From Alphaproteobacteria bacterium (GTDB taxonomy: Bacteria; Pseudomonadota; Alphaproteobacteria; MPNO01): 64,000 bases of DNA. The notes under the pieces were generated by a model. It was not told where the DNA came from. It did not search any database and saw only the letters and a list, made by a program, of their open reading frames with translations. Within the stretch, counting starts at the first letter, position 1. Each line of letters starts with the position of its first letter. Position numbers and translations under genes: made by a program. The stretch covers positions 1,600,001 to 1,664,000 of the forward strand of contig CBDFLJ010000002.1 in the NCBI GenBank assembly GCA_965248835.1, in the 5' to 3' direction. This document shows, piece after piece, positions 1-16,574 of the stretch.

Positions 1-670
1 ACAGCTTTCCGGTGAGCTTGGGCGCACTCAGCCCCTTCATCCCGCGCTCCAGAATGAAGCCGCTGATCACGTCATCGTCGTCCTTCGCCCAGACGACGAA
101 CACGTCGGCGATCGGCGCGTTGGAGATCCACATCTTGGTGCCCTTGAGCACGTACCCGCCGTCGACCGACCGGGCGCGGGTCCTCATTCCGCCCGGATCG
201 GAGCCGTGGTCGGGCTCGGTCAGCCCGAAAGCGCCGACCCATTCGCCGGTCGCGAGCCTGGGCAGATATTTCTGGCGCTGCTCCTCGGTGCCGTAGTTGT
301 AGATCGGCCACATCACCAGCGAGGACTGCACCGACAGCGTCGAACGGTAGGAGGAATCGACGGCCTCGATTTCGCGCGCGATCAGCCCGTAGCAGACATA
401 GTTGGCACCGGCGCAGCCATAGCCATGGATGGTCGAGCCGAGGAAGCCGAGCGCGCCCAGTTCGTTGATGATCTCGCGGTCGAAGGACTCCTCGTTATAG
501 GCCTCGATGATCCGCGGCAGCAGCTTCTCCCGGGCATACTGGCGGGCGGTGTCGCGCGCGAGCCGCTCGTCCTCGCGGAGCTGGGTTTCGAACAGAAGCG
601 GGTCCTGCCAGTCGAACTTGGCCCATTTGCGTGGGGTATGCCCGCTCCCGGCCTCGACCTTCGTCGCCAT
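1..670 (-). CDS. gcdH: Glutaryl-CoA dehydrogenase (acyl-CoA dehydrogenase family), 5' part; runs off the left edge
   Basis: Manual translation from ATG at 670: [79 protein letters not shown], typical of GcdH. Absent from the ORF track because it has no stop in the window. Confidence 0.88.
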
Positions 671-801
671 GGCTCTTGATCCTTCATTGTCCCAGCCCGG
701 TTTCTCGGCCGGACTATAGGCGAAAATACCGGGCGTGTGTATTGACGGCACCGGCGGAATTTGGCCAAACCTTGACCAGCGAACAATTGCCGGAGGCGGG
801 T

Positions 802-2208
802 ATGCCGCACACGCTGAGGTCTTTCCTCGAATCGATCGACAACCGAATGCTGCATATCCACGATCCCATCAGCCCGGAAAGCCAGGTCGGCTATCTGTGC
901 TCGGAGAGCCGGGGACCGCTGATGTTCCACAACCTGACCGGCTATCCCGGCTGGCGGCTGACCGACATCCTGATCAAGGACCGCGCCGGCCAGGCTGCAG
1001 CCTTCGGCCTCGACGACACCAACGAGGTCTGCCCCTACCTCGCCGGGCGAATGGCAAGCCGGCGCGGAAACTCGGTGATGGTGGACGACGGCCCGGTCAA
1101 GGATATCAAGATGCTGGGGGCGGACGTCAACCTCCACAAGCTGCCCATCCCGCAGCATTCCGTGGGCGACGGCGGGCGCTACCTGGGATCGGGCATCACT
1201 ATCACGAAAGACCCCGAAACCGGCATCCGCAACGAATCCATCATCCGGATGATGCTCACCGAAGACCCCCAGAAGGCGACCTTCTGGATGGCCGCACGAC
1301 ACAACTACGCCCATTATCTCAAATACATCGCCAAGGACGAGCCGATGCCGATGGCCTTCGCCATCGGGCTCCACCCGGTCTACGAGATCATGGCCAACTG
1401 GTCGGGCCGGCACGAGGACTTCGACGAGCTCGAATACGGCGCCGGCATCCTCGGCGAGGACATCGAGATGGTCCGCTGCGAGACCATCGATCTCGAGGTC
1501 CCGGCCCATGCCGAGCTGGTGATCGAGGGCATGGTCCACCCCCATGACCGCATCCCGGAAGGCCCGTTCGGCGAGTTCACCACCTTCGGCTCGGGCGCCG
1601 AGGGGCCGGCGCCGGTCTTCCAGATCACCGGGGTGACACACCGCAAGGACCCGATCTTCCGCCACATGCAGGCCACCTGGTTCACCGATCACCAGCCGCT
1701 GATCACCCTGCCGATGGAGGCGACCTACTACAACCGGCTGCGCGACACCCACGGCAACACCAACATCAAGGACGTCTTCGTGCCGCCCTGGGCGTCCCAG
1801 TTCATGATGATCATCCAGATGGAGGCGAAGTGGGACGGCCAGGCGCGCGATGTCCTGATGTCGGCGCTCACCGGACCCAACCTCCACGTCAAGGTCGCGG
1901 TCGCGGTCGATGAGGACGTCGACATCTACAACGCCGAGGACGTGCTGTGGGCGATCGCGTGCCGCACCAACCCGGCCGACCAGGTCCACATCATGCCGGG
2001 CTCCCGGCTGCACCCGCTCGACATCTCGATCCCCGAGATCGGCGACGACTACACCGTGATGCGGATCGGCGGGAAGATGGCCATCGACGCCACCAAGCCG
2101 CCGACCTGGCGGGCGGACGAACGCCGCAAGTTCGCCCGCGTCGACCCGATGGGCAAGAACGACCCGGCAATCGCCGACATCCTCCAACAGGTCCGCGCGG
2201 CGCGTTAG
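802..2208 (+). CDS. UbiD-family prFMN-dependent (de)carboxylase #1
   Basis: GGAGG RBS before ATG 802 ([10 protein letters not shown]). Motifs DGGRY, NESIIR, RH, DE, EGPFGE, VDEDVDI and KMAIDATKP. Confidence 0.92.
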
Positions 2209-2242
2209 AACCGGTTGCGGCACGGCGTCGGAGCGACAGCGG

Positions 2243-3457
2243 ATGACCAGCGTCTTCGCCATGCCGCGCAACGAGATCGCATCGATCGGACTGATCGCCT
2301 CGGGGCACGGCTTCAGCCATTTCTACATGCTGGCTCTGCCGCCCCTGTTTCCGCTGATGCGCACCGATCTGGACGTCAACTGGACGGCGCTGGGCCTGAT
2401 CCTGACCGTCTACGCGGTCGCCACTGGTGTCGCCCAGCTTCCTGCCGGGATCCTGGTCGACCGGATCGGCGCCCGCCCGGTGCTGCTTGCCGGGCTCACG
2501 GTACAGGCCGCCGCCTTCACCCTGGTGGCGCTGTTTCCGGGCTATTGGGCGCTGCTGGTGCTGATGTTCGTCGCCGGATTGGGCAATGCGGTCTTCCATC
2601 CGGCCGATTACGCGATCCTTGCGGCCCGGGTCGAGTCGGACCGCCAAGGCCGCGCTTTCGGCATCCACATCTTCTCCGGCTATGCCGGTTGGGTCGTGGC
2701 GCCACCGGCGATGCTGTTCCTGACCTCGTTCTGGGACTGGCCGACGGCGTGCTCGATCGCCGGCGTGATCGGCCTGCTGTTCGTGGCCGTGGCCGCCCTG
2801 TTCCGCGATGCGCTGAGCGATACGGCGGTGCGGGGCATGGGCGGGGCCGAAGAGCGCGGGCCGAAGCCGTCGGCCGCAAGGACCACGCTTTCGGTGATCA
2901 CCGCGCCTGCAGTGCTGCTGTTCTTCCTGTTCTTTCTGGCGCTGGCGACCGGTACCGTGGGCATCATGAGCTTCGCGGTGGTTGCCCTGGTCGAGCTCTA
3001 CGGCGCCTCGCTGCAGATGGCCAATGCCCAGCTCACCGGCTATTTCACGGCAGCGGCAGTGGGCGTCCTGATCGGCGGGGTGATAGCCGACAAGGTGAAG
3101 GACCACGAAAAGCTCGCCGCGCTTTGCTTCGTCGCCTCGGCCCTGTTCCTCGGCGTGATCGCGCTCAAGATCATGCCGATCGCCTATGTCGCGATCCCGA
3201 TGGCGGCAAGCGCCTTCACGGTCGCGCTGGTCAGCCCCTCGCGCGACCTGATGGTGCGTAATATCTGCCCGCCGGGAACGATCGGCACGGTCTTCGGCTT
3301 CGTTACCACCGGGTTCTCGGTCGGGACGGCGGTCGGCCCGCCGGTCTTCGGCCTGTTCGCCGACATCGGCATGCCCGAGATGGTCTTCTGGCTATCGGGC
3401 CTGATCACCATGTTCTGTATCGTCTCGATCTACGCCGCCAAGGCGGCAGCGCGCTAG
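2243..3457 (+). CDS. MFS transporter (Fsr-like)
   Basis: About 12 hydrophobic segments; motif A GILVDRIGAR; GLGNAVFHP. Confidence 0.9.
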   Translation: MTSVFAMPRNEIASIGLIASGHGFSHFYMLALPPLFPLMRTDLDVNWTALGLILTVYAVATGVAQLPAGILVDRIGARPVLLAGLTVQAAAFTLVALFPGYWALLVLMFVAGLGNAVFHPADYAILAARVESDRQGRAFGIHIFSGYAGWVVAPPAMLFLTSFWDWPTACSIAGVIGLLFVAVAALFRDALSDTAVRGMGGAEERGPKPSAARTTLSVITAPAVLLFFLFFLALATGTVGIMSFAVVALVELYGASLQMANAQLTGYFTAAAVGVLIGGVIADKVKDHEKLAALCFVASALFLGVIALKIMPIAYVAIPMAASAFTVALVSPSRDLMVRNICPPGTIGTVFGFVTTGFSVGTAVGPPVFGLFADIGMPEMVFWLSGLITMFCIVSIYAAKAAAR

Positions 3458-3467
3458 GGGCGGCACC

Positions 3468-4421
3468 ATGAGAGGCCTCTGGCTGTGCGAGGGAAGACTG
3501 GCCTATCGCGAGGACATCCCCGCGCCCCGGCGCGCGCCCGGCGAGTGCATTGTCCGGGTCCGCCACGCCGGCATCTGCTCGACCGACATTGCGATGCTGG
3601 GCGGGCTCTACCCGTTCGAAGGCGTCCTGGGCCACGAGTTCGTCGGTATCGTCGAGGACGGACCCGATGCGCTCGCCGGCCGGCGGGTGGTGGGTGAGAT
3701 CAACGCGTGCTGCGGCGTCTGCGATTACTGCCGCGGCGCGCTGCGCAAGCATTGCCCCAACCGGACGGTGATCGGCATCCTCGGCCGCAACGGCGCGTTC
3801 GCAGAGCGGATCGTCCTGCCGGAGGAGAACCTGCACGTCGTTCCGGACTCGGTGCCCGACCGCGCGGCGGTGTTCACCGAGCCCTTGGCGGCCGCCCTCG
3901 ACATCCTCGAACGCGTCGAGATCGGCCCCGACGACCGGGTTCTGCTGGTCGGTGCCGGCAAGCTCGGCCAGCTCCTCGCCCGCGTCCTGGCGACCACCGG
4001 GTGTACCCTGGACATCATCGTGCGCAGCCCGTCCAAGGCCGCGCGGCTCGACGGCGTGGACGCGCGGCTGATCGCCGCCGAGGACATGACCGCGCAAGCC
4101 TACGACATCGCCGTCGAATGCACCGGCAACCAGGACGGGCTCCTGGCGGCCCTTGCCGGCCTGCGGCCGCAAGGCGCGCTGGTGATGAAAAGCACCTTTC
4201 CCGGCCTGATCGCCGTCGACGTCACCAAGATCGTGGTCGACGAGATCCGCCTGATCGGCTCGCGCTGCGGCCCCTACGACAAGGCGCTTGCCCTGCTCGA
4301 GGGGGGCAAGGTCGATCCGCAGGCCCTGGTCGATGCCACCTACCGGCTCGCGGACGGACTTGCGGGCATCGCCAGGACGCGGGAGCCGGGAACGCTCAAG
4401 GTGCTGCCGGATCTGGACTGA
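3468..4421 (+). CDS. Zn-dependent alcohol dehydrogenase (MDR family)
   Basis: GICSTD, GHE, structural-Zn CGVCDYC..C, EPLAAA, GAGKLG. Confidence 0.9.
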   Translation: MRGLWLCEGRLAYREDIPAPRRAPGECIVRVRHAGICSTDIAMLGGLYPFEGVLGHEFVGIVEDGPDALAGRRVVGEINACCGVCDYCRGALRKHCPNRTVIGILGRNGAFAERIVLPEENLHVVPDSVPDRAAVFTEPLAAALDILERVEIGPDDRVLLVGAGKLGQLLARVLATTGCTLDIIVRSPSKAARLDGVDARLIAAEDMTAQAYDIAVECTGNQDGLLAALAGLRPQGALVMKSTFPGLIAVDVTKIVVDEIRLIGSRCGPYDKALALLEGGKVDPQALVDATYRLADGLAGIARTREPGTLKVLPDLD

Positions 4422-4486
4422 CGGCCCGATCGACACTTGCCTGTTGCGAGAGCCGCGAGATCCTGGCCGCGGCGGCCGTCGAGGTC

Positions 4487-4513
4487 GTTGCTTTACGGTT
4501 GCTTTACGGTTGC
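4487..4513 (+). repeat. 11-bp tandem direct repeat GTTGCTTTACG x2 plus partial copy GTTGC
   Basis: Read directly at 4487-4497, 4498-4508 and 4509-4513, in the intergenic region upstream of nadC. Confidence 0.8.
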
Positions 4514-4530
4514 GGGCGGTTTGTGTACCA

Positions 4531-4542
4531 GGAACATGTTCC
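4531..4542. promoter_or_regulatory. Perfect 12-bp palindrome GGAACATGTTCC, candidate operator
   Basis: AT-rich palindrome about 35 nt upstream of the nadC ATG. Function is inferred only. Confidence 0.4.
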
Positions 4543-4576
4543 AAACACGCTGGACCGGAAAGCGGCGAGACGACCG

Positions 4577-5458
4577 ATGACAGCACGACCGGAGAACCTC
4601 GACATGCGGGCGTTGCTGCCGCCGGCCGAGGAGCGCCAGCGCCTGATCGCCCAATGGCTCGCCGAGGACATCGGGCGCGGCGACATCACGACCGATTTCC
4701 TGATCCCGGCCGATGCCACGGCGCGTTTCGTGATGAACACCCGTGACGATGTGGTGGTCTGCGGCATCGATCTGGCACTGGAGATCTTTCGCCACCATGT
4801 GCCGGACTGTGAGGCCGGAGTGTTGACGCCGGACGGGACGCGAGCCGCGCCGGGCACGGCGCTCGCCCGCGTCAAAGGGCCGGCGCGCGGGCTTCTGACG
4901 GCCGAACGCACGGCGCTGAACCTCCTCCAGCTCCTGACCGGCATCGCCACTCGGACGGCGGCGTACGCGCGGCTGGTCGAGGGGACGGGGGCGACCCTGA
5001 TCGACACACGCAAGACCATCCCGGGTTTCCGGGTGCTGTCGAAATACGCTTCCTGCGTGGGCGGTGCGCGCAACCACCGGATCCGGCTCGACGACGGGCT
5101 GCTGCTCAAGGACAACCACATCGCGGTGTGCGGCTCGATCTCTGCCGCCGTAGCGCAGGCCAAGGCGCTGACCCCGTCATTGACCAAGATCGAGATCGAG
5201 TGCGACACGCTCGAGCAGGTCGCGGAATCGGCGGCGGCGGGCGCCGATGTGATCCTGCTCGACAACATGGACGCGGCCATGATGCGCGAGGCCGTCAGGA
5301 TCATCGCCGGCCGCGCCGAGTGCGAGGCCTCGGGCGGGATAACGCTCGAGACCATCCGCGAGAAGGCGCAAAGCGGAGTCGACTTCATTTCCGTCGGACG
5401 CATGACCCAGTCTGCGCCGGCGGCCGATATCGGCCTCGACGTCTCGATCGATAGCTGA
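4577..5458 (+). CDS. nadC: Quinolinate phosphoribosyltransferase (nicotinate-nucleotide diphosphorylase, carboxylating)
   Basis: EDIGRGDITT, ERTALN, DTRKTIPG, NHRIRLDD, KDNH, EIECDT, LLDNM, EASGGI. The real start is ATG 4577 inside the longer ORF-track frame. Confidence 0.93.
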   Translation: MTARPENLDMRALLPPAEERQRLIAQWLAEDIGRGDITTDFLIPADATARFVMNTRDDVVVCGIDLALEIFRHHVPDCEAGVLTPDGTRAAPGTALARVKGPARGLLTAERTALNLLQLLTGIATRTAAYARLVEGTGATLIDTRKTIPGFRVLSKYASCVGGARNHRIRLDDGLLLKDNHIAVCGSISAAVAQAKALTPSLTKIEIECDTLEQVAESAAAGADVILLDNMDAAMMREAVRIIAGRAECEASGGITLETIREKAQSGVDFISVGRMTQSAPAADIGLDVSIDS

Positions 5459-5551
5459 GCGACAAAAGACACGCCCGGGGACGCTCTTTCCGGCGGTCGG
5501 GCATCGGGTGCCGGAGACCCTCGCCCGCCCGCGCCGGCGCGGGTTTCGAGA

Positions 5552-5580
5552 TTGTGGAAGGCCGGGCCGCGGCCTATAAA
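5552..5580 (+). promoter_or_regulatory. Putative sigma70 promoter for UbiD #2
   Basis: TTGTGG-N17-TATAAA, 35 nt upstream of ATG 5615. Confidence 0.5.
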
Positions 5581-5614
5581 AACTTCGATATCGCAACAAA
5601 TCGGGAGTACCGCG

Positions 5615-7138
5615 ATGGCCAAGACCCTGCGCGAGGAAGTGGACGCCGTGGAAGCGGCAGCCAGGCCCGGCAGCAACATCCGCGCCGTCCTGCCCTATGG
5701 CGATTTGCGCGAATGGCTGGCCGAGGCCGAGCGGCTGGGCGAGGTCACCGTCGTCAAGGGTCTGGAAAAGGAAGAAGAGATCGGCATGGCGGCCGAACTC
5801 GTGATGCATTCCGATGACGCCGACTGCATCGTCTTCGACGACATCAAGGGCCACGAGCCGGGCTATCGCGTGCTGGTCAACTTCTTCGGCGGCAAGCGCA
5901 AGAACATGACGCTCGGCTTCCCCACCGACCTCAGCAAGGTCGAGCTGTCGGAGGCCTATTACACCGCCCAGCTCAAGGACATGAAGCCGATCCCCCATCG
6001 CGTCGTCGAGCAGGGACCGGTCACCGAAAACGTCCTGGAAGGCGATGACATCGACGTGACGAAGTTCCCGGCGCCGCTCTGGCACCCCGATGACGGCGGG
6101 CACTATATCGGCACCGGCTCCTACGACGTCACCGTCGATCCCGACACCGGCTGGATGAATCTGGGCACCTACCGGGTGATGGTCCAGGACGCCAGGACGG
6201 TCGGCTATTACATCTCTCCCGGCAAGCACGGCCGGGTCCACCGCGACAAATACATCGCGCGCGGCGAGAAGATGCCGACGGTGATCGTGGTCGGCGGCGA
6301 TCCCATGACGTTCCTGACCGCCTGCACCGAGATGCCGCCGGGCGTGTGCGAATACGACATCGTCGGTGCCATGCGCGGCGAGCCGCTGAAGGTCATCAGG
6401 GGCCGCCACACCGGCATCCCCTTCCCGGCCGATGCCGAGATCGTGCTCGAAGGCTTCGTCGATCCCGAGGAGCGCCGCCCCGAAGGCCCGTTCGGCGAAT
6501 GGACCGGCTATTACGGCTCGGACATGCGCGACGAGCCGGTGATGCATCTCAGCGCGATCTATCACCGTGACAACCCGATCCTGCTCGGCTGCCCGCCCCA
6601 GCGGCCGCCGGACGAGATGTGCCGCTACCGCGCGGTCACCCGCTCGGCGATGCTGCGCGATGCGATCGAGAAGGCGGGTGTGCCCGATGTCGTCTCGGCC
6701 TGGGCGCACGAGGTCGGCAACTCGCGCATGCTGCTGGCGGTCTCGATCAAGCAGCGCTATCCGGGCCATGCCAAACAGGCCGGCCATTGCGCGGCGATGT
6801 GCCACGTCGGCGCTTACGCCGGAAAGTACGTGATCGTCACCGACGAAGACATCGACATTTCCAACCTCGAGGAGCTGACCTGGGCGATGATCACCCGGTC
6901 CGATCCGGCGACCTCGATCGACATCATCAAGGACGCCTGGTCGACCCCGCTCGACCCGCGCATCCCGCCTTGGGAGAAATCGGCGGGCAACATGACCAAT
7001 AGCCGCGCCATCATCGATGCCTGCCGTCCGTTCCACTGGAAGGACGACTTCCCGATGGTCAACGCTCCCTCCCAGGAGGTCGCGCGCAAGGCCAGGGAGA
7101 AGTTCGGCTACCTGTTGGACGGCAAGGACGCACCGTAA
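5615..7138 (+). CDS. UbiD-family prFMN-dependent (de)carboxylase #2
   Basis: GGGAG RBS; DLREWL, DGGHYIGT, NLGTYR, PGKHG, EGPFGEWTGYY, TDEDIDI, IIDACRP. Confidence 0.93.
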   Translation: MAKTLREEVDAVEAAARPGSNIRAVLPYGDLREWLAEAERLGEVTVVKGLEKEEEIGMAAELVMHSDDADCIVFDDIKGHEPGYRVLVNFFGGKRKNMTLGFPTDLSKVELSEAYYTAQLKDMKPIPHRVVEQGPVTENVLEGDDIDVTKFPAPLWHPDDGGHYIGTGSYDVTVDPDTGWMNLGTYRVMVQDARTVGYYISPGKHGRVHRDKYIARGEKMPTVIVVGGDPMTFLTACTEMPPGVCEYDIVGAMRGEPLKVIRGRHTGIPFPADAEIVLEGFVDPEERRPEGPFGEWTGYYGSDMRDEPVMHLSAIYHRDNPILLGCPPQRPPDEMCRYRAVTRSAMLRDAIEKAGVPDVVSAWAHEVGNSRMLLAVSIKQRYPGHAKQAGHCAAMCHVGAYAGKYVIVTDEDIDISNLEELTWAMITRSDPATSIDIIKDAWSTPLDPRIPPWEKSAGNMTNSRAIIDACRPFHWKDDFPMVNAPSQEVARKAREKFGYLLDGKDAP

Positions 7139-7149
7139 CCGGATGCGCC

Positions 7150-7602
7150 CTAGCCGGTGAACAGCGCCGCGCCTTCGTCCTCGAGCATCGGGCCGGTGAC
7201 CGCGACATCCCTCTCGCCGCAGGCGAAGACGTCGCGGCAGTGGAGCTTGAGCATCGGCGGGCCGGCCTCGCGCACGGTGACCAGGCGCGCGTGCGACAGG
7301 CCGTAGACAAGCCGCGAGATGCCCGACCAGAACACGGCCGCGGCGCACATCGCACAGGGCTCGCAGCTCGTCACCAGGGTATAGCCGTCCAGCACCCCGA
7401 CGCCGTACTTGCGGCTCGCCTCGCGCACCAGGTTGGACTCGGCATGGCCGGTGCAATCACTGTCGGTGACGACCGTGTTCTCGCCTTCCATGACGATGTT
7501 GCCGTCGGGGTCGACCAGCACCGAGCCGAAAGGCGGATTGCCATTTCCCGCCGCCCGTTTCGCAGCCGCATACGCACGCCGCATCAGTTCTTCGTCGTTC
7601 AT
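7150..7602 (-). CDS. Nucleoside/nucleobase deaminase (cytidine deaminase superfamily; guanine/cytosine deaminase-like)
   Basis: MNDEELMRRA..NPPFGSVLV..HAE..EPCAMC Zn motifs. Confidence 0.9.
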   Translation of the reverse strand: MNDEELMRRAYAAAKRAAGNGNPPFGSVLVDPDGNIVMEGENTVVTDSDCTGHAESNLVREASRKYGVGVLDGYTLVTSCEPCAMCAAAVFWSGISRLVYGLSHARLVTVREAGPPMLKLHCRDVFACGERDVAVTGPMLEDEGAALFTG

Positions 7603-7692
7603 CCTGCCCTCCCGGTTCGGCCACGGCTTGCGCGCGGACCGCCCACAATCCGATACTGCCCTGCCAGCAACGCGTTTGCCATGGACCTCTGA

Positions 7693-8751
7693 ATGAAATT
7701 CGGCCTGTTCTACCTGCCCACCTACATGCCGGCGATCCGCGACGCCGGCACCCATTACGACAACATCATCGAGCAGATCCTCTATGCCGAGAAGATCGGC
7801 ATCGATTATGCCTGGCTGGTGGAGCACCATTTCGTCCGGCACGGCGGGCTGATGGCCGCGAACTACGCCTTCCTGTCCTACCTCGCCGGCAGGACCGAGC
7901 GAATCCGGCTCGGCACCGGCGCGACGGTCCTGCCGCTCAACGATCCGGTCCGGGTCGCCGAACAGGCAGCGACCCTGGACCACCTGTCGCGTGGCCGGTT
8001 CGACCTCGGGCTCGGGCGGGGGTTCATCCGGGACGAGTTCGACTCCTTCGGCGTGCCCATGTCGGAGAGCCGCGAGCGGCTGGAGGAAGGCGTTGCGCTG
8101 ATCAAGCAGGCCTGGGCAGCGCCGACGCTGGAATTTCCCGGCGGGTTCCGCCCGCCGATGACCGATTTGTCGATCCTGCCGCCGCCCTTCCAGAAACCCC
8201 ACCCGCCGATCTGGGTCGCGTGCCTGCTGTCGCCGGAGAGCTTCGCCTGGACGGCGCGGGAGGGCTACAACCTGCTCTATGTCGCCTATCACGTCGATCA
8301 TCCGGTCGCGGTCGAACGCATCGGCTGGTACCGCAACGCGCTGACCGCCGCCGGACGCCTCATCGAGGACCACGAGATCTGCTGCGTCTACCACGCCCAT
8401 TTCCTGGAAGCGGACGACGATGTGCGGCTGGAATCGATCGTCGACCAGCCGATGCAGGAATACGCCGCCGCCGGCCTGGAGGCCACGCGCAAGCCGGCCG
8501 ATGCCAAGGGCTACGAGGGCTATGAGCAGCGCGATGCAGGCCAGCGCCGCTTCGGCTTCGAGATGTATTTCCCCGGCCGCGTGCTGATGGGCGGCCCCGG
8601 CCAGGCGATCGCACGCATCAAGGAGCTCGAATCGGTCGGCATCACCCAGATCGGCCTGCTGATCGATTTCGGCTCACTGCCGCAGGCCGAGATCATGCGT
8701 TCGCTGGAAATCTTCGGCCGTGAGGTGCTGCCGGCGGTGCGCGACCTGTAG
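7693..8751 (+). CDS. Luciferase-like (LLM) flavin-dependent monooxygenase/oxidoreductase
   Basis: MKFGLF, EHHF, RTERIRLGT, AEQAATLDHLSRGRFDLGLGRG, QKPHPPIW. Confidence 0.9.
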   Translation: MKFGLFYLPTYMPAIRDAGTHYDNIIEQILYAEKIGIDYAWLVEHHFVRHGGLMAANYAFLSYLAGRTERIRLGTGATVLPLNDPVRVAEQAATLDHLSRGRFDLGLGRGFIRDEFDSFGVPMSESRERLEEGVALIKQAWAAPTLEFPGGFRPPMTDLSILPPPFQKPHPPIWVACLLSPESFAWTAREGYNLLYVAYHVDHPVAVERIGWYRNALTAAGRLIEDHEICCVYHAHFLEADDDVRLESIVDQPMQEYAAAGLEATRKPADAKGYEGYEQRDAGQRRFGFEMYFPGRVLMGGPGQAIARIKELESVGITQIGLLIDFGSLPQAEIMRSLEIFGREVLPAVRDL

Positions 8752-8787
8752 AGCCGACCGAGGTCAAGCTTGCGGCCGGCTACGGTC

Positions 8788-9168
8788 TCAGGACTTGGCC
8801 GGCCGGCTGGAAAACGTCGCGTCGTCGATGACGAAACGCCACAGGCCGTCGGCTTCCCTGGTCAGCACCTCGGCCGAGGAGCCCGACATGGCGACCGAGC
8901 CGTCCGGCGCGGTAAGCACCCAATCGGTGCGGACCAGCGCGGTATCGCCGTTCTCGTAGCTCGCCCCGCATGTCGTGGTGATGCTCACCGACCCGTCCAG
9001 CATCGGCGCCATCATCTCGCCGATCGCCGCCTTACCGACGGCCGAGGCCTCACCGTCGATCGTCAGCATCCCGCCGTCGGCATAAAGCGCCAGCAAACCG
9101 TCGAGATCCTGCGCATTGAAGAGCCTGCCGAACGTCTCCGGCATCTCCGCCGGTGCTTTCACACCCAT
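8788..9168 (-). CDS. NTF2/SnoaL-like (YybH/DUF4440) protein
   Basis: 126 aa; FNAQDLDGLLALY..EVLTREADGLWRFVIDD; GGAGG RBS. Confidence 0.8.
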   Translation of the reverse strand: MGVKAPAEMPETFGRLFNAQDLDGLLALYADGGMLTIDGEASAVGKAAIGEMMAPMLDGSVSITTTCGASYENGDTALVRTDWVLTAPDGSVAMSGSSAEVLTREADGLWRFVIDDATFSSRPAKS

Positions 9169-9249
9169 GATGGCCTCCTCCTGGTCTGATCTCTTGAACT
9201 ATCGATCGCTCGGACTACGCGCCAGGATAGCCCGACATCGCGGTCATGG

Positions 9250-9702
9250 TCAGCCCGGCGCCATGCCCTTTTTCTCGAGCTGCTCGACGGCGTTGGGCGT
9301 CTTTTCCAGACTATCCAGCCCCATGGCTTTCAGCACGTGGCCGGCCTTGGTGAACTGGATGTCGTCGTAGGGCACGACCTCGACGCGGTTGCCCCACGGA
9401 TCGCGGAAGTTGAGGCGGTCTCCGATCAGGGGCACGCCAAGCTTCTCGAGCGCCGAGCGGATCGGGCCGCGGTCGTCGACGACGAAGCCGAAATGACGCT
9501 TCTGGTCGGGCGCCCGGTCCGCGTTCTCGGTCAGTTGCAGGAACTGATCACCCATGTCGATGAAGACGTTGGTCTTGCCCTTGCCGCGCAGCTCGAAGTC
9601 GAAGATTGCGCCGTAGAACGCCAGTGCCTCCTCGATGTCGCCGACCTCCAACACGACGTGGTTGATGCCCAAGGCGCGGGCCTTGCCGGGTGTCCTGGCC
9701 AT
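9250..9702 (-). CDS. VOC/glyoxalase-family protein
   Basis: INHVVLEVGDIEEALAFY, RHFGF, FRDPWGNRVEV. Confidence 0.85.
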   Translation of the reverse strand: MARTPGKARALGINHVVLEVGDIEEALAFYGAIFDFELRGKGKTNVFIDMGDQFLQLTENADRAPDQKRHFGFVVDDRGPIRSALEKLGVPLIGDRLNFRDPWGNRVEVVPYDDIQFTKAGHVLKAMGLDSLEKTPNAVEQLEKKGMAPG

Positions 9703-9724
9703 ATCTCTACCCTCCCGATGCCGG

Positions 9725-10487
9725 CTAACGCGGCGGCAGACGGACGGCGCCGTCGAGCCGGATGGTCTCGCCGTTCAGCAGCGTGTTCTCGACGATATGC
9801 TGGACGAGCTGGGCGAACTCGTCGGGCTCGCCCAAGCGCGGCGGAAACTGGGTGATCGCAAGCAGGCCCTCGCGCACGGCATCCGGGACGCCATCGAACA
9901 TCGGCGTCTCCAGGATGCCGGGCGCGATGGCGCACACCCGGATGCCGGCGCGCGCGAACTCGCGCGCCGCTGGCAAGGTCAGCGAGGCGACCCCGCCCTT
10001 CGACGCCGAATAGGCAGCCTGGCCGATCTGGCCTTCGAATGCCGGCGACCGAGGATGTGTTGACGATTACCCCGCGTTCGCCGGACTCCTGCGGTTCGGC
10101 CTCCGCCATCCCCGCCGCGGCGAGGCGCATCACGTTGAAGGTACCGATCAGGTTGACTTCGATCACCCGGGCGAAGTCCTCCAACGCCATCGGGCCGCCG
10201 CGGCCGACGATACGCGCTGCCGGTCCGATCCCGGCGCAGTTGACGGCGATCTGCGGCGTACCCACCGCATCGCCGATCTCGGCGAGCGCGGCCTCGACGG
10301 CCTCGGGCGAGGTGACGTCGCAGCAAACGCCGATCCCGCCCAGCGCATCGCCAGCCGCCTTGGCGCCCTCGGCGTTCAGATCCATCACGGCGACCTTCGC
10401 GCCCGCGCCGGCCAGCCGTCTGGCCGTGGCCTCGCCCAGCCCCGATGCGCCGCCGGTCACCAGCGCCGCCACACCCTCGATCCTCAT
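9725..10487 (-). pseudogene. HSD10/type II 3-hydroxyacyl-CoA dehydrogenase-like SDR with a +1 frameshift (pseudogene or sequencing error)
   Basis: The N-terminus (MRIEGVAALVTGGASGLG..VNCAGI..NTSSVA) and C-terminus (..[18 protein letters not shown]) are in different frames. The span is 763 nt (3n+1). Removing one C at 10042/10043 restores [17 protein letters not shown]. Confidence 0.85.
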
Positions 10488-10523
10488 GCTCGTCCTTCCC
10501 CCGGTATTCGCCGTACCGGCCAG

Positions 10524-10552
10524 TTTACACCAACCTCCCCCGTCCTTATAGC
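10524..10552 (+). promoter_or_regulatory. Putative sigma70 promoter for the crotonase gene
   Basis: TTTACA-N17-TATAGC, 20 nt upstream of GTG 10573. Confidence 0.4.
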
Positions 10553-10572
10553 TTGGGCCCGGCGGCGCAAGC

Positions 10573-11367
10573 GTGGAGAAGACCGTGGCGGTGTTCGAAT
10601 CCGAGTTCCTGGCCCTCGAAATGCGCGGCCGCATCGCGGTGCTGACGCTGAACCGGCCGGAAAAGCGCAACGCGGTTCACATGGCGATGATCGAGGACGT
10701 CAACCGGTTCTTCGTCACCCCGCCCGACGATGCCCGCGCCGTCGTCCTGGCCGGCGCGGGAGACCATTTCTGCGCCGGGCTCGATCTCTCCGAGCACAAG
10801 GAACGCGACGTGCCTGAGGCGCTCGCCGCCTCGCGCTATTGGCACCGCACGCTGGAGATGATCCAGTTCGGCGGCCTGCCGGTGATCACCGCCATGCACG
10901 GCGCTGTGATGGGCGGCGGGCTGGAGATCGCGGTCGCCACCCACGTCCGGGTCGCCGAGCCGTCGGCGATCTACCAGTTGCCCGAGGGCCAGCGCGGCAT
11001 CTTCGTCGGCGGCGGCGCATCGGTCCGGGTTTCGCGCATCATCGGCGCCGGACGGACGACCGAGATGATGCTCACTGGCCGCCGACTCGACGCCGCCGAG
11101 GGTCAGGCGCTTGGGCTGTCGCACTACCTGGTCGGCACCGGCGAGGCGCTGGACAAGGCACGCGAGCTGGCGGAGACGGTGGCCAGCAACGCGCCGCTGG
11201 TCAACGACGTGATCATGCTGGGCATCGAGCGCATCGCCGACATGTCGATGACCGGCGGCTTCTACACCGAAGCCATCGCCTCGGCGCTGACCCAGACCAG
11301 CGAAGATGCCAGGGCTGGGATGGAGGCGTTCCTGCAAAAACGCAAGGCGAAGTTCCGCGCGGATTAA
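10573..11367 (+). CDS. Enoyl-CoA hydratase/crotonase-family protein
   Basis: LNRPEKRNA, FCAGLDL, GGGLE, LPEGQRGI (both catalytic Glu present). Confidence 0.9.
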   Translation: MEKTVAVFESEFLALEMRGRIAVLTLNRPEKRNAVHMAMIEDVNRFFVTPPDDARAVVLAGAGDHFCAGLDLSEHKERDVPEALAASRYWHRTLEMIQFGGLPVITAMHGAVMGGGLEIAVATHVRVAEPSAIYQLPEGQRGIFVGGGASVRVSRIIGAGRTTEMMLTGRRLDAAEGQALGLSHYLVGTGEALDKARELAETVASNAPLVNDVIMLGIERIADMSMTGGFYTEAIASALTQTSEDARAGMEAFLQKRKAKFRAD

Positions 11368-12293
11368 CAGGCTTTCCGATCGGATCCAGTCGGCCCGGAT
11401 CGGCCGGCGGGCTTTCTCAGGCGCACCGTGAAGACTGCGGCGATCACCAAGGCGGCGCCGATGAGCTGCAGGCGGGTCAGCGTCTGACCGAGGATCACGA
11501 ACCCGGCGGCGATGGTGAAGACCGGCTCGAGGTTCATCACCAGCGTGGCGCGGATCGAGCCGATCAGCGAGATCGCGGCGAAGAAGCAGACTGTGGAGAG
11601 CGCGTAGAGAACCGGCAGCGCGCCATAGCCGAGCCAGCCCTTGGCGGTCTCCGGCAACGCCACGTCGCCATCGATCAGGCAGATGACGATGAAGATCGTC
11701 CCGGCGGCAACCTGCATGTGCAGGGTCAGCGGCCTCGGGTCCTGCGCGCGCATGAGCTGGGCGCTGACCACCGCGACCAACGACCAGGCCCCGGCCGCAC
11801 CCAGCGCCAGGCCGGCGCCGAACAGATCCATCCCCGCACCGGAGAGGTTGAACACCAGCAGCAGCCCGGCGAAGGCGGTCACCAAGGCCGCGGCGATCGC
11901 CGGCGTCATCCGGTCCTGGCCGATTGCGATCGCGATCACGGTCACCAGCATCGGATAGATGTAGAAGATCGAAAACGTCAGGCCGACCGGAATGAGTGCG
12001 AAGGAGTTGTAGAGGCAGTAGGACTGGACCGACAGCAGACAGCCGAGCGCAAGCGAGAACAGGCGTTGGCGCGGCGGCAGCATGAAGGGTATGCCCAGCA
12101 GGCGCATCACGCCGACCAGCACGATGATCGCGCCGGCGAAACGGATGGTGATCGCCGCCAGCGGCTCGCCGCCGCCTTCATAGGACCAGACTGTCGCCAC
12201 GGTGGAGCCGGTGAACGCGGCCGAAGACAGCACCGCGAGACCGATGCCGAACATCCCGCGCCGCCGGGCGGGCTCGGTCGGGATCAGGGGCAT
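11364..12293 (-). CDS. DMT/EamA-family transporter
   Basis: About 10 TM segments in two repeats; RFAGA, YIYPMLV, NLEPVFT, LGQTLT. Confidence 0.85.
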   Translation of the reverse strand: MPLIPTEPARRRGMFGIGLAVLSSAAFTGSTVATVWSYEGGGEPLAAITIRFAGAIIVLVGVMRLLGIPFMLPPRQRLFSLALGCLLSVQSYCLYNSFALIPVGLTFSIFYIYPMLVTVIAIAIGQDRMTPAIAAALVTAFAGLLLVFNLSGAGMDLFGAGLALGAAGAWSLVAVVSAQLMRAQDPRPLTLHMQVAAGTIFIVICLIDGDVALPETAKGWLGYGALPVLYALSTVCFFAAISLIGSIRATLVMNLEPVFTIAAGFVILGQTLTRLQLIGAALVIAAVFTVRLRKPAGRSGPTGSDRKAC

Positions 12294-12328
12294 CGACCGG
12301 CCGGGTCGGCGACGGTGGCGGGCGCGGC

Positions 12329-13333
12329 TCAGTCGAGGTTCAACAGGGTCCGGGCGTTGTTCTCGTAAAGTGCGGCGCGCTCGGTCTTGCTGACCTCGAG
12401 CTCGTCGAGGATCTTGATGGTCTCGCGGATATACATCGGCCCGCCCTCGGGATCGAACGGGCAGTCGGAAGCGAACATGCACTTCTCGATGCCGAAGAAG
12501 GCGAGTCCGCAATCGGTTGCCGCGCTCGACCCGAAGGTCGCAGTATCGGCATAGAACATCTTGAAATAGTCGATCGGCCGCTTTTTCATCGACGCCAGCA
12601 GCGCCTCGTAGTCCTCATCGGCGGTGCGGGTTCCGAGCTGGTCCCAGCCGGGCCCGACCCGCCCTTCGAAATAGGGGATCATCGCGCCCAGGTGGTGGGA
12701 GATGATCTTGATGTCCGGCAGCTTGTCGAAGATGCCGGAAAAGACGATCCGGGCCATCGCCACCGAAGTCTCGTAGGGCCAGCCGAAGGTCCACCAGATC
12801 TCGTACTTGGACTTGTCCTCGGTGAGATAGTCCGGGTGATTGGCGCCGCGCGCGGGGTGCAGCCAGATCGGCTTGTCGAGCTGGGCCATGCGCTCGAACA
12901 GCGGGTAGAACTCCGGCTCGTCCAGCGGCCGGCCGTTGACATGGGAGAAGATCTGGACCCCGCACGCGTTGAGCTCGCGGATCGACCGGTCGATCTCCTC
13001 CATCGTCGCGTCCATGTTGTTCATCGGCAGCGAGGCGATGAAGCCTGGGAACCGGTCGGGGTGCCGGCGGCACAGATCGGCCATGCCGTCATTGACCAGC
13101 CGGGCGAGCTCGGGCGTGACGTCCGGGCCGGCGATGAACTCGATCGGCGGCATCGAGTTCGACAGGATCTGCTGGTACTCGCCGAACGTCTCCATCATGC
13201 GCAGCCGCGCGTCGACGTCGTAAAGGACCGGGATGTTGAGCCAGCGCTTGATCGGGTCCTTGTTGGGGATCACTTCCTGCATCCGCTCGAAATAGGCTTT
13301 GGGAAAGACGTGGTTGTAGATATCAAGCTTCAT
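12329..13333 (-). CDS. Amidohydrolase_2-family protein (ACMSD/LigW-like decarboxylase or hydratase)
   Basis: LARLVNDGMA, PDRFPG, PIWLHP, HHLGAMIP, FYADTA, FASDCPF, NARTLL. Confidence 0.85.
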   Translation of the reverse strand: MKLDIYNHVFPKAYFERMQEVIPNKDPIKRWLNIPVLYDVDARLRMMETFGEYQQILSNSMPPIEFIAGPDVTPELARLVNDGMADLCRRHPDRFPGFIASLPMNNMDATMEEIDRSIRELNACGVQIFSHVNGRPLDEPEFYPLFERMAQLDKPIWLHPARGANHPDYLTEDKSKYEIWWTFGWPYETSVAMARIVFSGIFDKLPDIKIISHHLGAMIPYFEGRVGPGWDQLGTRTADEDYEALLASMKKRPIDYFKMFYADTATFGSSAATDCGLAFFGIEKCMFASDCPFDPEGGPMYIRETIKILDELEVSKTERAALYENNARTLLNLD

Positions 13334-13532
13334 GGCTGGTCCCCTGATCCCCCGAATGCCTCGATGACCGGCGGCGGCGGCGGCGTTGCGGCATTATGTC
13401 GGGACCGGCCGGGGCTGCCAAGCGCGCGCCCGTGGGCGGAGTCGACCCCGCATCCAGGCGCATGATAGGGTCGCGGCGATCACCGGGCCGCGCGGCCCGG
13501 ATGCCGTCGATAATCGAACCGGGAGTATCACG

Positions 13533-14492
13533 ATGAGGAAGATAACGACGAGTCTCGGGCTCGCTGCGATCATTGCCGTGGGCAGCGTTGCCGCCCAGGC
13601 GCAGACCATCGCCATCGGCACCACCAAGGGCGGCGCGACCGCGCAGATCGCCGCGGCGATCGCCAAGGTGGTCTCGACCAAGGGCGGCGGGCTGCAGATG
13701 CGCACCCAGCCGTTCGGCGGCACGCAGCAATACATTCCGGTGGTCAATGCCGGCGACGTCGAGATCGGCATGTCGAACCTGCCGCAATATTCGATGGCCA
13801 TAACCGGCACCGGGCTTTCCAAGCGCAAGCATGACAATTTGCGCCTGCTCGCCAACATGATGGTCTTCCAGGTCGGCATCCTGGTGCCCGACCGCTCCGA
13901 CGTCAAAAAGCTCTCGGACCTGCGCGGCAAGCGGGTACCGGCAGGCTTCAAGGCCGCGCCTCTGTTCGTCTTCCTGATGAACGGATTCCTCGCCAATGGC
14001 GGGCTCAGCTACGATGACGTCGCCCGGGTGCCCGTGGTCGCCCTGCGCCAGCACTGGAACATTTTCGCCCAGGGCAAGACCGACATGGCGCTGGCGGCGC
14101 TCGGCACCGGGCGGGTAAAGGAGCTCAACACCAAGATCTCCGGCGGGATCCGCTTCGTCAGCCTCGACCCCGACCCCAAGATGACCAAGGCGATGGTCGC
14201 GGCATATCCGAAGTCCTTTCTCAGGCTGGTCCAGCCCTCGCCCAGGCTCACCGGCGTCAAGTCCCCGGTCTACACGATGAACTACGACTACACGCTGTGG
14301 GCCAACAAGAACATCTCGGACAAGATCGTGCGCACCATCGTCAAGACGATGTACGACAACGAGGCCGATCTGAAGGCGGCAAGCCCGCTGTGGCGCAGCC
14401 ATTCCTCGGCGACGATGGCCAAGGATCTGGGCTTCGCCTTTCACCCGGCGGCGGTGAAATTCTACCGGGAGGCCGGCGTCTGGAAGCGCTAG
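13533..14492 (+). CDS. TAXI-family TRAP transporter solute-binding protein
   Basis: Signal peptide ending AQA; IGTTKGG, DLRGKRV, FHPAAVKFYREAG. Confidence 0.88.
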   Translation: MRKITTSLGLAAIIAVGSVAAQAQTIAIGTTKGGATAQIAAAIAKVVSTKGGGLQMRTQPFGGTQQYIPVVNAGDVEIGMSNLPQYSMAITGTGLSKRKHDNLRLLANMMVFQVGILVPDRSDVKKLSDLRGKRVPAGFKAAPLFVFLMNGFLANGGLSYDDVARVPVVALRQHWNIFAQGKTDMALAALGTGRVKELNTKISGGIRFVSLDPDPKMTKAMVAAYPKSFLRLVQPSPRLTGVKSPVYTMNYDYTLWANKNISDKIVRTIVKTMYDNEADLKAASPLWRSHSSATMAKDLGFAFHPAAVKFYREAGVWKR

Positions 14493-14519
14493 CAGGGCCG
14501 TTCGCGGGGCAGCGCAGGT

Positions 14520-14548
14520 TTGTCGCCGCCCCGCGGCCGGGGTATAGT
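14520..14548 (+). promoter_or_regulatory. Putative internal sigma70 promoter for the TAXI permease
   Basis: TTGTCG-N17-TATAGT; overlaps the inverted repeat CGCGGGGC..GCCCCGCG between the SBP and permease genes. Confidence 0.45.
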
Positions 14549-14600
14549 CGGCCAGCGTGAAGAACAGGACGAAAACGGGGACCTCGACGGGTAGATTCAG

Positions 14601-16574
14601 GTGGCGGAGGATCACCTAGAGCGGGATAGCGACGCCGCCGGGCTCGACACCCCGATCCCTGACAGGCCATCCGTTCGCGTGATCACGATCGCGATCGGCT
14701 GTGCCATCACGGCCATCCCGCTCGCCTGGGCGATCGATCTGACGCTGCTGCTAGGTTTCGAGTTCTTCCGCGAGCAGGCGCTCGCCGTCGTGCTCGGGCT
14801 CGCGTTTGGGGGGATCTTCCTCCGGTTCCCGGCCTCGGGCGGCTCGTCGCGGACCGGGCCGGTGCCGTGGTACGACCTGATCCTGGCAATCCTCGGAATC
14901 GGTGCCTCGTTCTACCTCGCCTACCGCTACCAGGAGCTGGTCAACGACTTCTACTATCTGCGCCAGGAGGCGTTCGCGATCAGCATCATCATCATCCCGC
15001 TGATCGTCGAAGGTCTGCGCCGCACCGCCGGCTGGAGCCTGGTGGGCGTGCTTTCGATCTTCCTGCTCTACAGCTTCATCGGCCATTGGGTGCCCGGAAA
15101 GCTGCAGGGCAAGCAGCAGGCTCCGGACTCCTTGATCGCCTATCTTGGCGTGGACAACGTCGCCCTGATGGGCCTGCCGATGGTCATCGTGTGCATGGTC
15201 GTCGTGCTGTTCATCTTCATGGGCCGGCTGCTGGTGGTCTCGGGCGCATCGAACTGGTTCACCGACCTCGCCGCCGCCCTGATGGGCCGCTCGCGCGGCG
15301 GTGCAGCCAAGATCGCGATCGTCGCCTCGGGCCTGTTCGGCTCGATCTCGGGCAGCGCGGTCTCCAACGTCGCCTCGACCGGAGTGATCACGATCCCGCT
15401 GATGCGCCGGGCCGGCTACGGCGCGGCCAGCGCCGGCGCGATCGAGGCGGTGGCCTCGACCGGCGGCCAAATCATGCCGCCGATCATGGGCGCGGCCGCC
15501 TTCCTGATGGCCGAACTGCTCGAGGTGGCCTATGTCGAGGTCATCCTCGCCGCCCTGATCCCGGCGATCCTCTATTACATCGCGGTCTTCATTCAGGCCG
15601 ACCTCGAGGCCGCGCGGCTTGGGATCGACCCGGTCCCGGAGGACCGGATCCCGCCTTTGTTGCGCGTGCTCAAGGAAGGCTGGTTCTTCACGATCCCGTT
15701 CATCGTGCTGATCCTGGCGCTGTTCTCGTTCAACATGCCGCCGGAGGGCGCGGCCTTCTATGCCGCGATTTCGATCCCGATCGTCAGCGTGATCTTCGGC
15801 TACAAGGGCCAGCGCATGACCGTGCGGGAGCTTGCCACGGCCATTGCCGAGGCGGGCCGGTCCTCAGTCGACATCATCATGATCGGCGCGATGGCGGGGC
15901 TGATCATCGGCGTCCTCGAGGTCACCGGGCTCGGCTTCGCGCTGACCCTGGTGCTGACCGAGATCGGCAAGGACAGCCTGCTGCTCCTGCTGCTGATCAC
16001 CGCCGGCGTGTCGATCCTGCTCGGCATGGGCATGCCGACATCGGCGATCTACTTCCTGCTCGCCGTCATGGTCGCCCCGCCGCTGATCAAGCTTGGGCTC
16101 GATCCGATGGCCGCCCACCTGTTCGTGCTCTATTACGGGCTGATGTCGATGATCACCCCGCCGGTGGCGATCGCAGCGTTCACCGGCGCCAAGATCGCCG
16201 GCGCGCCGCCGATGCTGACCGCGATGACCGCGGTCAGGCTCGGCTGGGTCGCCTATGTGATGCCGTTCGTGTTCGTCATGTCGCCGGCCCTGATCATGCG
16301 CGGCTCATTCCTGGAGGTGGCGATCGCTTTCATCGCGGCATTCTTCGGCATCTGGCTCGGATCGGCCGGCTTGCTGGGCTATTTCACCAAGCGGCTCAAT
16401 CCGGCGGTTCGCGCGCTGTTCTTCGCCTGCGGGATCGCCTTGTTGTTCCCGATCGATATCGTAGACGGCGGCATCGTCATCCGGCTCGCCGGCGCGGCCC
16501 TGGGCGCGGTCCTGATCGGCCGCGAAATAATCGACAAGCGGCGCGCGGCGGCCTCAACGAGCGCCGCCGAATAG
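14601..16574 (+). CDS. TAXI TRAP fused 4TM/12TM permease
   Basis: GGAAKIAIVASGLFGSISGSAVSNV, EAVASTGGQIMPPIMGAAAF, LGMGMPT, ITPPVA. Confidence 0.93.
   Translation: MAEDHLERDSDAAGLDTPIPDRPSVRVITIAIGCAITAIPLAWAIDLTLLLGFEFFREQALAVVLGLAFGGIFLRFPASGGSSRTGPVPWYDLILAILGIGASFYLAYRYQELVNDFYYLRQEAFAISIIIIPLIVEGLRRTAGWSLVGVLSIFLLYSFIGHWVPGKLQGKQQAPDSLIAYLGVDNVALMGLPMVIVCMVVVLFIFMGRLLVVSGASNWFTDLAAALMGRSRGGAAKIAIVASGLFGSISGSAVSNVASTGVITIPLMRRAGYGAASAGAIEAVASTGGQIMPPIMGAAAFLMAELLEVAYVEVILAALIPAILYYIAVFIQADLEAARLGIDPVPEDRIPPLLRVLKEGWFFTIPFIVLILALFSFNMPPEGAAFYAAISIPIVSVIFGYKGQRMTVRELATAIAEAGRSSVDIIMIGAMAGLIIGVLEVTGLGFALTLVLTEIGKDSLLLLLLITAGVSILLGMGMPTSAIYFLLAVMVAPPLIKLGLDPMAAHLFVLYYGLMSMITPPVAIAAFTGAKIAGAPPMLTAMTAVRLGWVAYVMPFVFVMSPALIMRGSFLEVAIAFIAAFFGIWLGSAGLLGYFTKRLNPAVRALFFACGIALLFPIDIVDGGIVIRLAGAALGAVLIGREIIDKRRAAASTSAAE

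Follow-up and report, generated by a model that had tools for sequence, protein, structure and literature searches.

A UbiD-MFS-ADH group, nadC and a second UbiD gene in a UbiD-rich alphaproteobacterial lineage: probably three units side by side by descent

We analyzed a 64,000-nucleotide stretch (the window, G000:C2:1600001-1664000) of the genome of an Alphaproteobacteria bacterium (G000, 4.89 Mb in two contigs, about 66% G+C). Near its start, five genes encode a UbiD-family protein (UbiD1), an MFS transporter, a putative zinc-dependent medium-chain dehydrogenase/reductase (ADH), the quinolinate phosphoribosyltransferase NadC and a second UbiD-family protein (UbiD2). We consider, with a probability of about 0.58, that descent has kept three functionally distinct units next to each other here, as a mosaic, in a lineage rich in UbiD genes. 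The first unit would comprise UbiD1, MFS and ADH, divergent from a predicted operon for an acyl-CoA dehydrogenase (ACAD), a CoA-transferase and MarR. The second would be nadC, an ordinary and sole quinolinate phosphoribosyltransferase gene, and the third UbiD2, an independent decarboxylase of the PhdA clade followed in the genus by a flavin monooxygenase. The three are probably not coupled metabolically.

We compared this region across an order whose members are uncultured marine and sponge-associated Alphaproteobacteria. The sample consisted of 78 genomes, our own included, from five families (f1 to f5, f1 being the family of G000), and neighbors were compared at 54 loci around UbiD1 orthologs. 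The G000 assembly was rated 100% complete with 9.5% contamination. Absences given below rest on profile searches of assemblies, counts of profile or genome matches are not strict copy numbers, and genes outside the window were called with an open reading frame (ORF) and third-position GC heuristic that misses some genes, nadC itself included.

The original prediction for this stretch had joined the five genes in a single pathway, an idea that was not borne out by the distribution of the genes. UbiD1 orthologs (72-91% identity) were recovered in 59/78 genomes and nadC in 47/78. Both were found in 16/19 further genomes of f1, and they were present in 21/26 and 23/26 genomes of f4 and in 1/2 and 2/2 of f5, respectively. 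UbiD1 persisted without nadC in f3 (20/25 vs 0/25), and nadC without UbiD1 in f2 (5/5 vs 0/5). In five good f3 genomes, nadC was not detected even at E<=1e-3, and f3 kept four UbiD2 orthologs without any nadC. In the f2 genome G020 (locus L247, 7259-10799), nadC was divergent from ACAD and a family III CoA-transferase gene with no UbiD gene between them, so that the neighborhood of nadC, ACAD and CoA-transferase exists independently of UbiD1. UbiD1 also occurs in another setting within G000: a gene-sized copy at C2:1508285-1509688, which shares 95.4% DNA identity over 1421 bp and matches only positions 790-2208 of the window, lies in an unrelated oxygenase cluster, with genes for an amidase and a Rieske/VanA-like oxygenase on one side and for an FAD monooxygenase on the other. 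Outside the lineage, the association was not recovered. A UbiD gene was found within 8 kb of nadC in 1/80 diverse bacterial nadC loci, that one belonging to this lineage (0/79 outside it), and none of the loci that carry a paralog or a more distant relative of UbiD1 had nadC (0/71).

The immediate partners of UbiD1 were also variable. Among the 54 loci, we recovered ACAD at 29, CoA-transferase at 28, nadC at 26, a phosphorylase-like gene at 21, TauD at 20, a GMC oxidoreductase at 18, MFS at 11 and a UbiD2 ortholog at 10, and ADH at none; nadC and the GMC oxidoreductase were never found in the same UbiD1 locus. No ADH paralog was detected in G000 and no copy in any other locus examined. The ADH protein scored 70.7 bits for ADH_N (cut-off 23.5) and 30.3 for ADH_zinc_N (cut-off 31.8) and reached no equivalog, and the zinc motifs GHE and C-x2-C-x2-C-x7-C were readable in its translation. 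The relatives of the MFS protein, at 45-54% identity, were automatically named as FSR family or fosmidomycin resistance proteins, which leaves its reading as an aromatic-acid importer unsupported. By analogy with the upper pathway of 5-hydroxymethylfurfural (HMF) degradation, ADH and MFS may be lineage-specific additions that oxidize a side-chain alcohol and transport the compound. In f3-type loci (L053, L064, L048, L175, and L176), which have no nadC, the UbiD1 ortholog is flanked by a choline-dehydrogenase-like GMC oxidoreductase gene in divergent orientation and by a gene for a TauD-family dioxygenase. L053 and L064 also have a gene for a TauE/SafE sulfite exporter close by, possibly pointing to a connection with organosulfonates.

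The nadC gene itself has the features of a housekeeping gene. Its product scored 298-301 bits for TIGR00078 (cut-off 198.4) and was the sole NadC match in G000, by which its identification as a second, catabolic paralog was rejected. Both domains (PF02749 and PF01729) were present, and the protein aligned with the Thermus enzyme 1X1O (246.9 bits), including the core motifs DTRKT, RNHR, LLKDNH, LLDN, and EASGG. In bacteria, NadC reportedly acts in a kynurenine-type pathway that reaches NAD through 3-hydroxyanthranilate. Like genomes with this route, G000 combines a canonical NadC with a stand-alone 3-hydroxyanthranilate 3,4-dioxygenase (3-HAO) that reaches its equivalog cut-off, and NadA was not matched in G000, in the genus or in any of the 20/20 family genomes. 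No NadB match reached the model cut-off in G000, and PncB/NadV (TIGR01514, PF04095) were matched in 0/5 genomes each, G000 and three good f3 genomes among them. The sole canonical copy, the lack of NadA, PncB and NadV matches and the presence of 3-HAO thus identify nadC as a housekeeping gene, whose product would convert quinolinate, most likely supplied by 3-HAO, to nicotinate mononucleotide for NAD. Unlike in the kynurenine-type route, tryptophan 2,3-dioxygenase and kynureninase were unmatched in G000 and its genus (kynureninase in 0/3 genomes of the genus, G000 included), although most sister genera do have kynureninase. G000 thus keeps NadC and 3-HAO without a recognizable upstream route to their substrates. 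In f3, where NadC was matched in 0/25 genomes, 3-HAO was found in 21/25, and PncB/NadV were unmatched in the three genomes tested. A bypass in which UbiD1 would turn quinolinate into nicotinate and PncB would turn this into nicotinate mononucleotide, considered as an explanation for UbiD1 without nadC in f3, was rejected since neither TIGR01514 nor PF04095 was matched.

The region upstream of nadC contains several short elements: a tandem 11-nt repeat GCTTTACGGTT (4490-4511), TTTGTGTAC (4520-4528) and the 12-bp palindrome GGAACATGTTCC (4531-4542). Of 26 related loci, 9 had CTTTAC[CG]G upstream of nadC and 8 had an element of the TTTGTTTGTGTAC type there. A search of the 4.9 Mb genome with a loose pattern gave three hits, including one in this region, and exact TTTGTGTAC occurred twice, counting either strand. 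Together with the 155-bp spacer between ADH and nadC, these conserved nadC-proximal elements suggest a control region of its own for nadC. No riboswitch or other known RNA was found by an Rfam scan of positions 1-9000 at E<=0.1, and a promoter and terminator scan of positions 500-7800 was uninformative, since shuffled sequence gave the same counts.

Both UbiD proteins belong to the UbiD family. UbiD1 and UbiD2 scored 193.7 and 232.4 bits for PF01977, 84.8 and 106.3 bits for PF20696, and 266.7 and 285.1 bits for TIGR00148 (cut-off 244.85). The original prediction had noted intact active-site motifs in both proteins, and we recovered NESIIR at 144 and EGPFGE at 253 in UbiD1, and NLGTYR at 182, GKHG at 203, CEYD at 245 and EGPFGE at 290 in UbiD2; the metal/prenylated FMN (prFMN) ligand and catalytic motifs of both aligned with those of HmfF and PhdA. 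In UbiD1, N144, R149, H167, E209, E253, and E258 were all invariant among 13 relatives (alignment A1), and we take them to have the roles of Fdc1 N168, R173, H191, E233, E277, and E282, at a constant offset of 24. The prediction had also assigned the two proteins to different clades, with which their low mutual score (about 138-144 bits) and their different nearest solved structures agree, and had noted that UbiD enzymes decarboxylate aromatic and heteroaromatic acids; the nearest characterized relatives of these intact proteins, HmfF and PhdA, do act on heteroaromatic acids. The best solved relatives of UbiD1 were the HmfF structures 6H6V/6H6X (195-196 bits, full length), and that of UbiD2 was PhdA (7PDA, 356 bits over residues 28-495). 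From their sequences, UbiD1 is thus predicted to be a prFMN-type decarboxylase of the HmfF clade and UbiD2 one of the PhdA clade. As for the possibility raised at the time that one of them was simply the ubiquinone-pathway UbiD, this identity was ruled out for both (131.9 and 167.5 bits for NF008175 vs a cut-off of 788); another paralog, at C1:1955435-1956976, scored 641 on this model.

UbiD1 would remove a carboxyl group from an aromatic or heteroaromatic acid, or add it reversibly, using prFMN provided by a single UbiX, for which G000 had one TIGR00421 match (C2:1889332-1889877, 236 bits vs cut-off 108.9) 288 kb from the locus. UbiD2 resembles PhdA, the phenazine-1-carboxylate decarboxylase of Mycolicibacterium fortuitum, in its NLGTYR motif (NVGTYR in PhdA) and in the common EGPFGEWTGY. 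It differs from it in coming from another phylum, and G000 itself encodes at least two paralogs that are closer to UbiD2 (70 and 59% identity), which implies diversified substrates. A luciferase-like flavin monooxygenase (LLM) gene lies downstream of UbiD2; its ortholog (89%) follows UbiD2 in G004, a genome of the same genus, and is absent from L019, the locus of the closest metagenome-assembled genome (MAG). Within the genus, UbiD2 may have the LLM as a partner.

The number of UbiD genes in these genomes has to be considered in any reading of such neighborhoods. We recovered 38 UbiD (PF01977) matches in G000, 37 of them as proteins in our own ORF set, with several of the genes in tight pairs or triplets that overlap or lie <=57 bp apart, and 27-39 matches in each of the 20 family genomes, so that neighborhoods containing UbiD are little informative on their own. 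Positions within 5 kb of a UbiD gene make up 7.5% of the G000 sequence, and those between two UbiD genes <=5 kb apart 0.2%; one genome alone is thus compatible with chance for a gene chosen after the fact. The arrangement, however, recurs in many related genomes. No description of such an expansion emerged from our search of the literature, which covered UbiD together with quinolinate, with sponge symbionts and with dissolved organic matter.

The coordinates of the region are given in Table 1. The five genes were all found as ORFs on the same strand, as originally predicted, and the gaps of 34 and 10 bp after UbiD1 and MFS were likewise confirmed; that between nadC and UbiD2 is 156 bp.

Table 1. 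Features of the region, in window positions unless a contig is named.
Feature	Position	Strand	Description
ACAD (acyl-CoA dehydrogenase), 5' part	1..751	-	Acyl-CoA_dh_N/M; divergent from UbiD1; full gene C2:1599456-1600751
UbiD1	802-2208	+	468 aa; Pfam UbiD + UbiD_C
MFS transporter	2243-3457	+	MFS_1
Putative Zn-dependent medium-chain dehydrogenase/reductase (MDR)/ADH	3468-4421	+	ADH_N; ADH_zinc_N just below cut-off
Non-coding elements upstream of nadC	4490..4542		Candidate nadC-specific operator or promoter region
nadC	4577-5458	+	QRPTase_N + QRPTase_C; TIGR00078
UbiD2	5615-7138	+	UbiD + UbiD_C
Luciferase-like flavin monooxygenase (LLM)	7693..8751	+	Downstream of UbiD2

Beyond the window start, ACAD is followed on the minus strand by the family III CoA-transferase gene and MarR. 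The CoA-transferase scored 511 bits, which falls short of the cut-off (750) of the model for succinate-glutarate CoA-transferase. Phthaloyl-CoA decarboxylase (Pcd; PDB 8OZ5/8PMK), a member of the UbiD family, is paired with a family III CoA-transferase, and UbiD1 similarly adjoins such a gene and one for an acyl-CoA enzyme. Unlike in that system, UbiD1 scored only about 80 bits to Pcd vs 195-196 to HmfF, the CoA genes are divergently transcribed, and those of f2 are linked to nadC without any UbiD. Elsewhere in the window, an Amidohydro_2 gene at 12329-13393 (minus strand), with no NCBIfam match at E<=1e-10, adjoins a TAXI-type TRAP transporter at 13368-16574 (plus strand), and a further divergent UbiD-family gene at 62531-64000 (minus strand) runs off the window end (PF01977 match C2:1663110-1663757, 99 bits).

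Several observations weigh against the separation of the region into three independent units. Both UbiD1 and nadC were present in 39 genomes. In 30 of these, from three families, the two genes were <5 kb apart, although flanking synteny was lost; they were 14 kb apart in 1, far apart on one contig in 4 and on different contigs in 4. UbiD homologs thus do co-occur with nadC within the order, where the original prediction would have fallen had they never done so. The block common to f1 and f4 consists of GltD-like, MarR, CoA-transferase, ACAD, UbiD1, and nadC, with non-syntenic flanks, and within it UbiD1 is better conserved between the two families than the adjoining nadC (81-85% vs 61-64% identity). 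In f4, nadC is followed by the thymidine-phosphorylase-like gene and then by orthologs of the G000 UbiD pair C2:605650/607218; UbiD1 and nadC of this family are separated by an Amidohydro_2 gene on the opposite strand, which was considered as ACMSD and rejected, with no NCBIfam match at E<=1e-3. The link with UbiD2 is also persistent. UbiD2 orthologs (at least 81% identity) were found <5 kb from nadC, directly beside it, in 14/15 f1 genomes, including G004 and G007, where UbiD1 is located elsewhere, and the fifteenth has a partial, contig-edge nadC 2.1 kb from its UbiD2 ortholog. The closest MAG shows a compact trio of UbiD1, a 33-bp gap, nadC and UbiD2. Each of the two UbiD clades includes characterized enzymes for heteroaromatic acids, and the substrate of NadC is likewise a heteroaromatic acid. 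No upstream route to 3-hydroxyanthranilate or quinolinate was recognized in G000, which leaves room for a supply role of a neighbor. The related genomes are not independent, and since all linkage derives from a single ancestral arrangement, selection and inertia would here be indistinguishable.

The same observations could instead reflect a metabolic island for N-heteroaromatic carboxylates (pyridine-type or aza-arene), in which the UbiD enzymes would trim polycarboxylated rings to quinolinate or make a precursor of it and NadC would capture the product as nicotinate mononucleotide; in the relatives, NadC and an adjacent thymidine/AMP-phosphorylase-like enzyme would then release nicotinate. 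The repeated adjacency of UbiD1 and nadC in three families and the survival of that of nadC and UbiD2 through rearrangements fit this proposal, as do the heteroaromatic substrates of HmfF and PhdA and the substrate source left open by the presence of NadC and 3-HAO without matches to NadA, tryptophan dioxygenase or kynureninase. In G004, moreover, nadC, UbiD2 and LLM are immediately preceded by three genes that encode the large, 2Fe-2S, and FAD subunits of a molybdenum hydroxylase (locus L245, G004:C1:3805001-3822000, positions 4877-12888), with UbiD1 and MFS 1.9 Mb from nadC and UbiD2. The molybdenum hydroxylase class includes N-heterocycle hydroxylases. We nevertheless consider such an island unlikely. 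Family f3 keeps UbiD1 and four UbiD2 orthologs without nadC, f2 keeps nadC beside the ACAD and CoA-transferase genes without UbiD, nadC is the sole housekeeping copy, no adjacency of nadC and UbiD was found outside the lineage, and the 27-39 UbiD genes per genome make chance adjacency easy. The thymidine-phosphorylase-family gene (NF003338, 580 bits; for example L021 13497-14978 and L038 10680-12449) directly follows nadC in 21/54 lineage loci, and the pair was also found in 12/80 diverse nadC loci (among L084-L104 and L128), including those of Bosea, Rhodoplanes, Cupriavidus, and Caballeronia; in G000 it had no tblastn match at E<=1e-10, and the unmatched PncB/NadV make a route from free nicotinate to NAD unavailable there. 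We give somewhat less credit still to a narrower proposal, in which the trio of UbiD1, nadC and a PhdA-like UbiD found in three families would be a working unit converting environmental N-heteroaromatic or aminophenolic (poly)carboxylates to quinolinate or 3-hydroxyanthranilate for capture by NadC. Our search of the literature on UbiD with quinolinate phosphoribosyltransferase or quinolinic acid found nothing relevant.

Two other proposals concern the UbiD proteins themselves. UbiD1, MFS and ADH could form a true furan module like hmfF-hmfT1-psfG, which would import and oxidize 5-hydroxymethyl-2-furoate-type compounds and decarboxylate 2,5-furandicarboxylate to 2-furoate, with nadC and UbiD2 as bystanders. 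HmfF is indeed the nearest solved relative of UbiD1, which aligns with it end to end and has in common with it the N-x-S-I-x-R variant of the metal/prFMN motif; one source automatically names relatives of UbiD1 "2,5-furandicarboxylate decarboxylase 1." His297 of UbiD1, invariant in alignment A1, aligned with His296 of HmfF, and in PMC7976604 one histidine of HmfF, numbered H297 there, is reported as key to furan specificity. In the upper HMF pathway, as described in PMC8091172, HmfF is accompanied by an MFS transporter and by either a dehydrogenase (PsfG) or a GMC oxidoreductase (HmfH). An MFS protein and an alcohol-oxidizing enzyme similarly adjoin UbiD1, as in the hmfFG-hmfH/psfG-hmfT1 clusters, and GMC oxidoreductase genes lie beside its orthologs at 18/54 loci. 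Such a module is nonetheless improbable here. The score of UbiD1 to HmfF is only 195-196 bits and three other G000 paralogs are as close to 6H6V/6H6X or closer, at 230, 188, and 224 bits, so that UbiD1 is not a unique HmfF ortholog. Unlike in the HmfF system, UbiD1 has no UbiX/HmfG gene beside it, with the single UbiX match at C2:1889332 (hmfABCDE were not searched for), the MFS looks FSR-type and ADH was found in G000 only. The GMC partner is choline-dehydrogenase-like and accompanied by TauD and TauE instead of hmf genes, and the partners of UbiD1 switch between families, from ACAD and CoA-transferase to GMC and TauD. It is far less probable, to the point of being barely credible, that UbiD1 and UbiD2 together form, as its subunits, a single hetero-oligomeric (de)carboxylase, on the model of phenylphosphate carboxylase with its alpha and beta subunits. 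The best NCBIfam match of UbiD2 was indeed the phenylphosphate carboxylase beta model (TIGR02724, Phenyl_P_beta), although at 297.8 bits it remained well under the cut-off of 468.95, and several UbiD genes of G000 do occur in tight pairs. UbiD1 and UbiD2, however, are 3.3 kb and three genes apart, with variable spacing and partners in the relatives; they are completely separated in G004 and G007, and UbiD2 orthologs accompany UbiD1 at only 10/54 loci.

If the region is indeed a mosaic of three units assembled by descent, it provides both a caution and a context for the interpretation of UbiD gene neighborhoods in UbiD-rich genomes. UbiD1 would then be worth following as an order-wide, single-copy enzyme of the HmfF clade, more conserved than the housekeeping nadC that adjoins it, as would the scale of the UbiD expansion and the presence of NadC and 3-HAO without a recognizable upstream route. 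If, on the other hand, the UbiD enzymes feed NadC, prFMN chemistry would be connected in a new way with NAD synthesis, and if the trio works as a unit, genomes without matches to NadA, tryptophan dioxygenase and kynureninase would have a novel way into this pathway.

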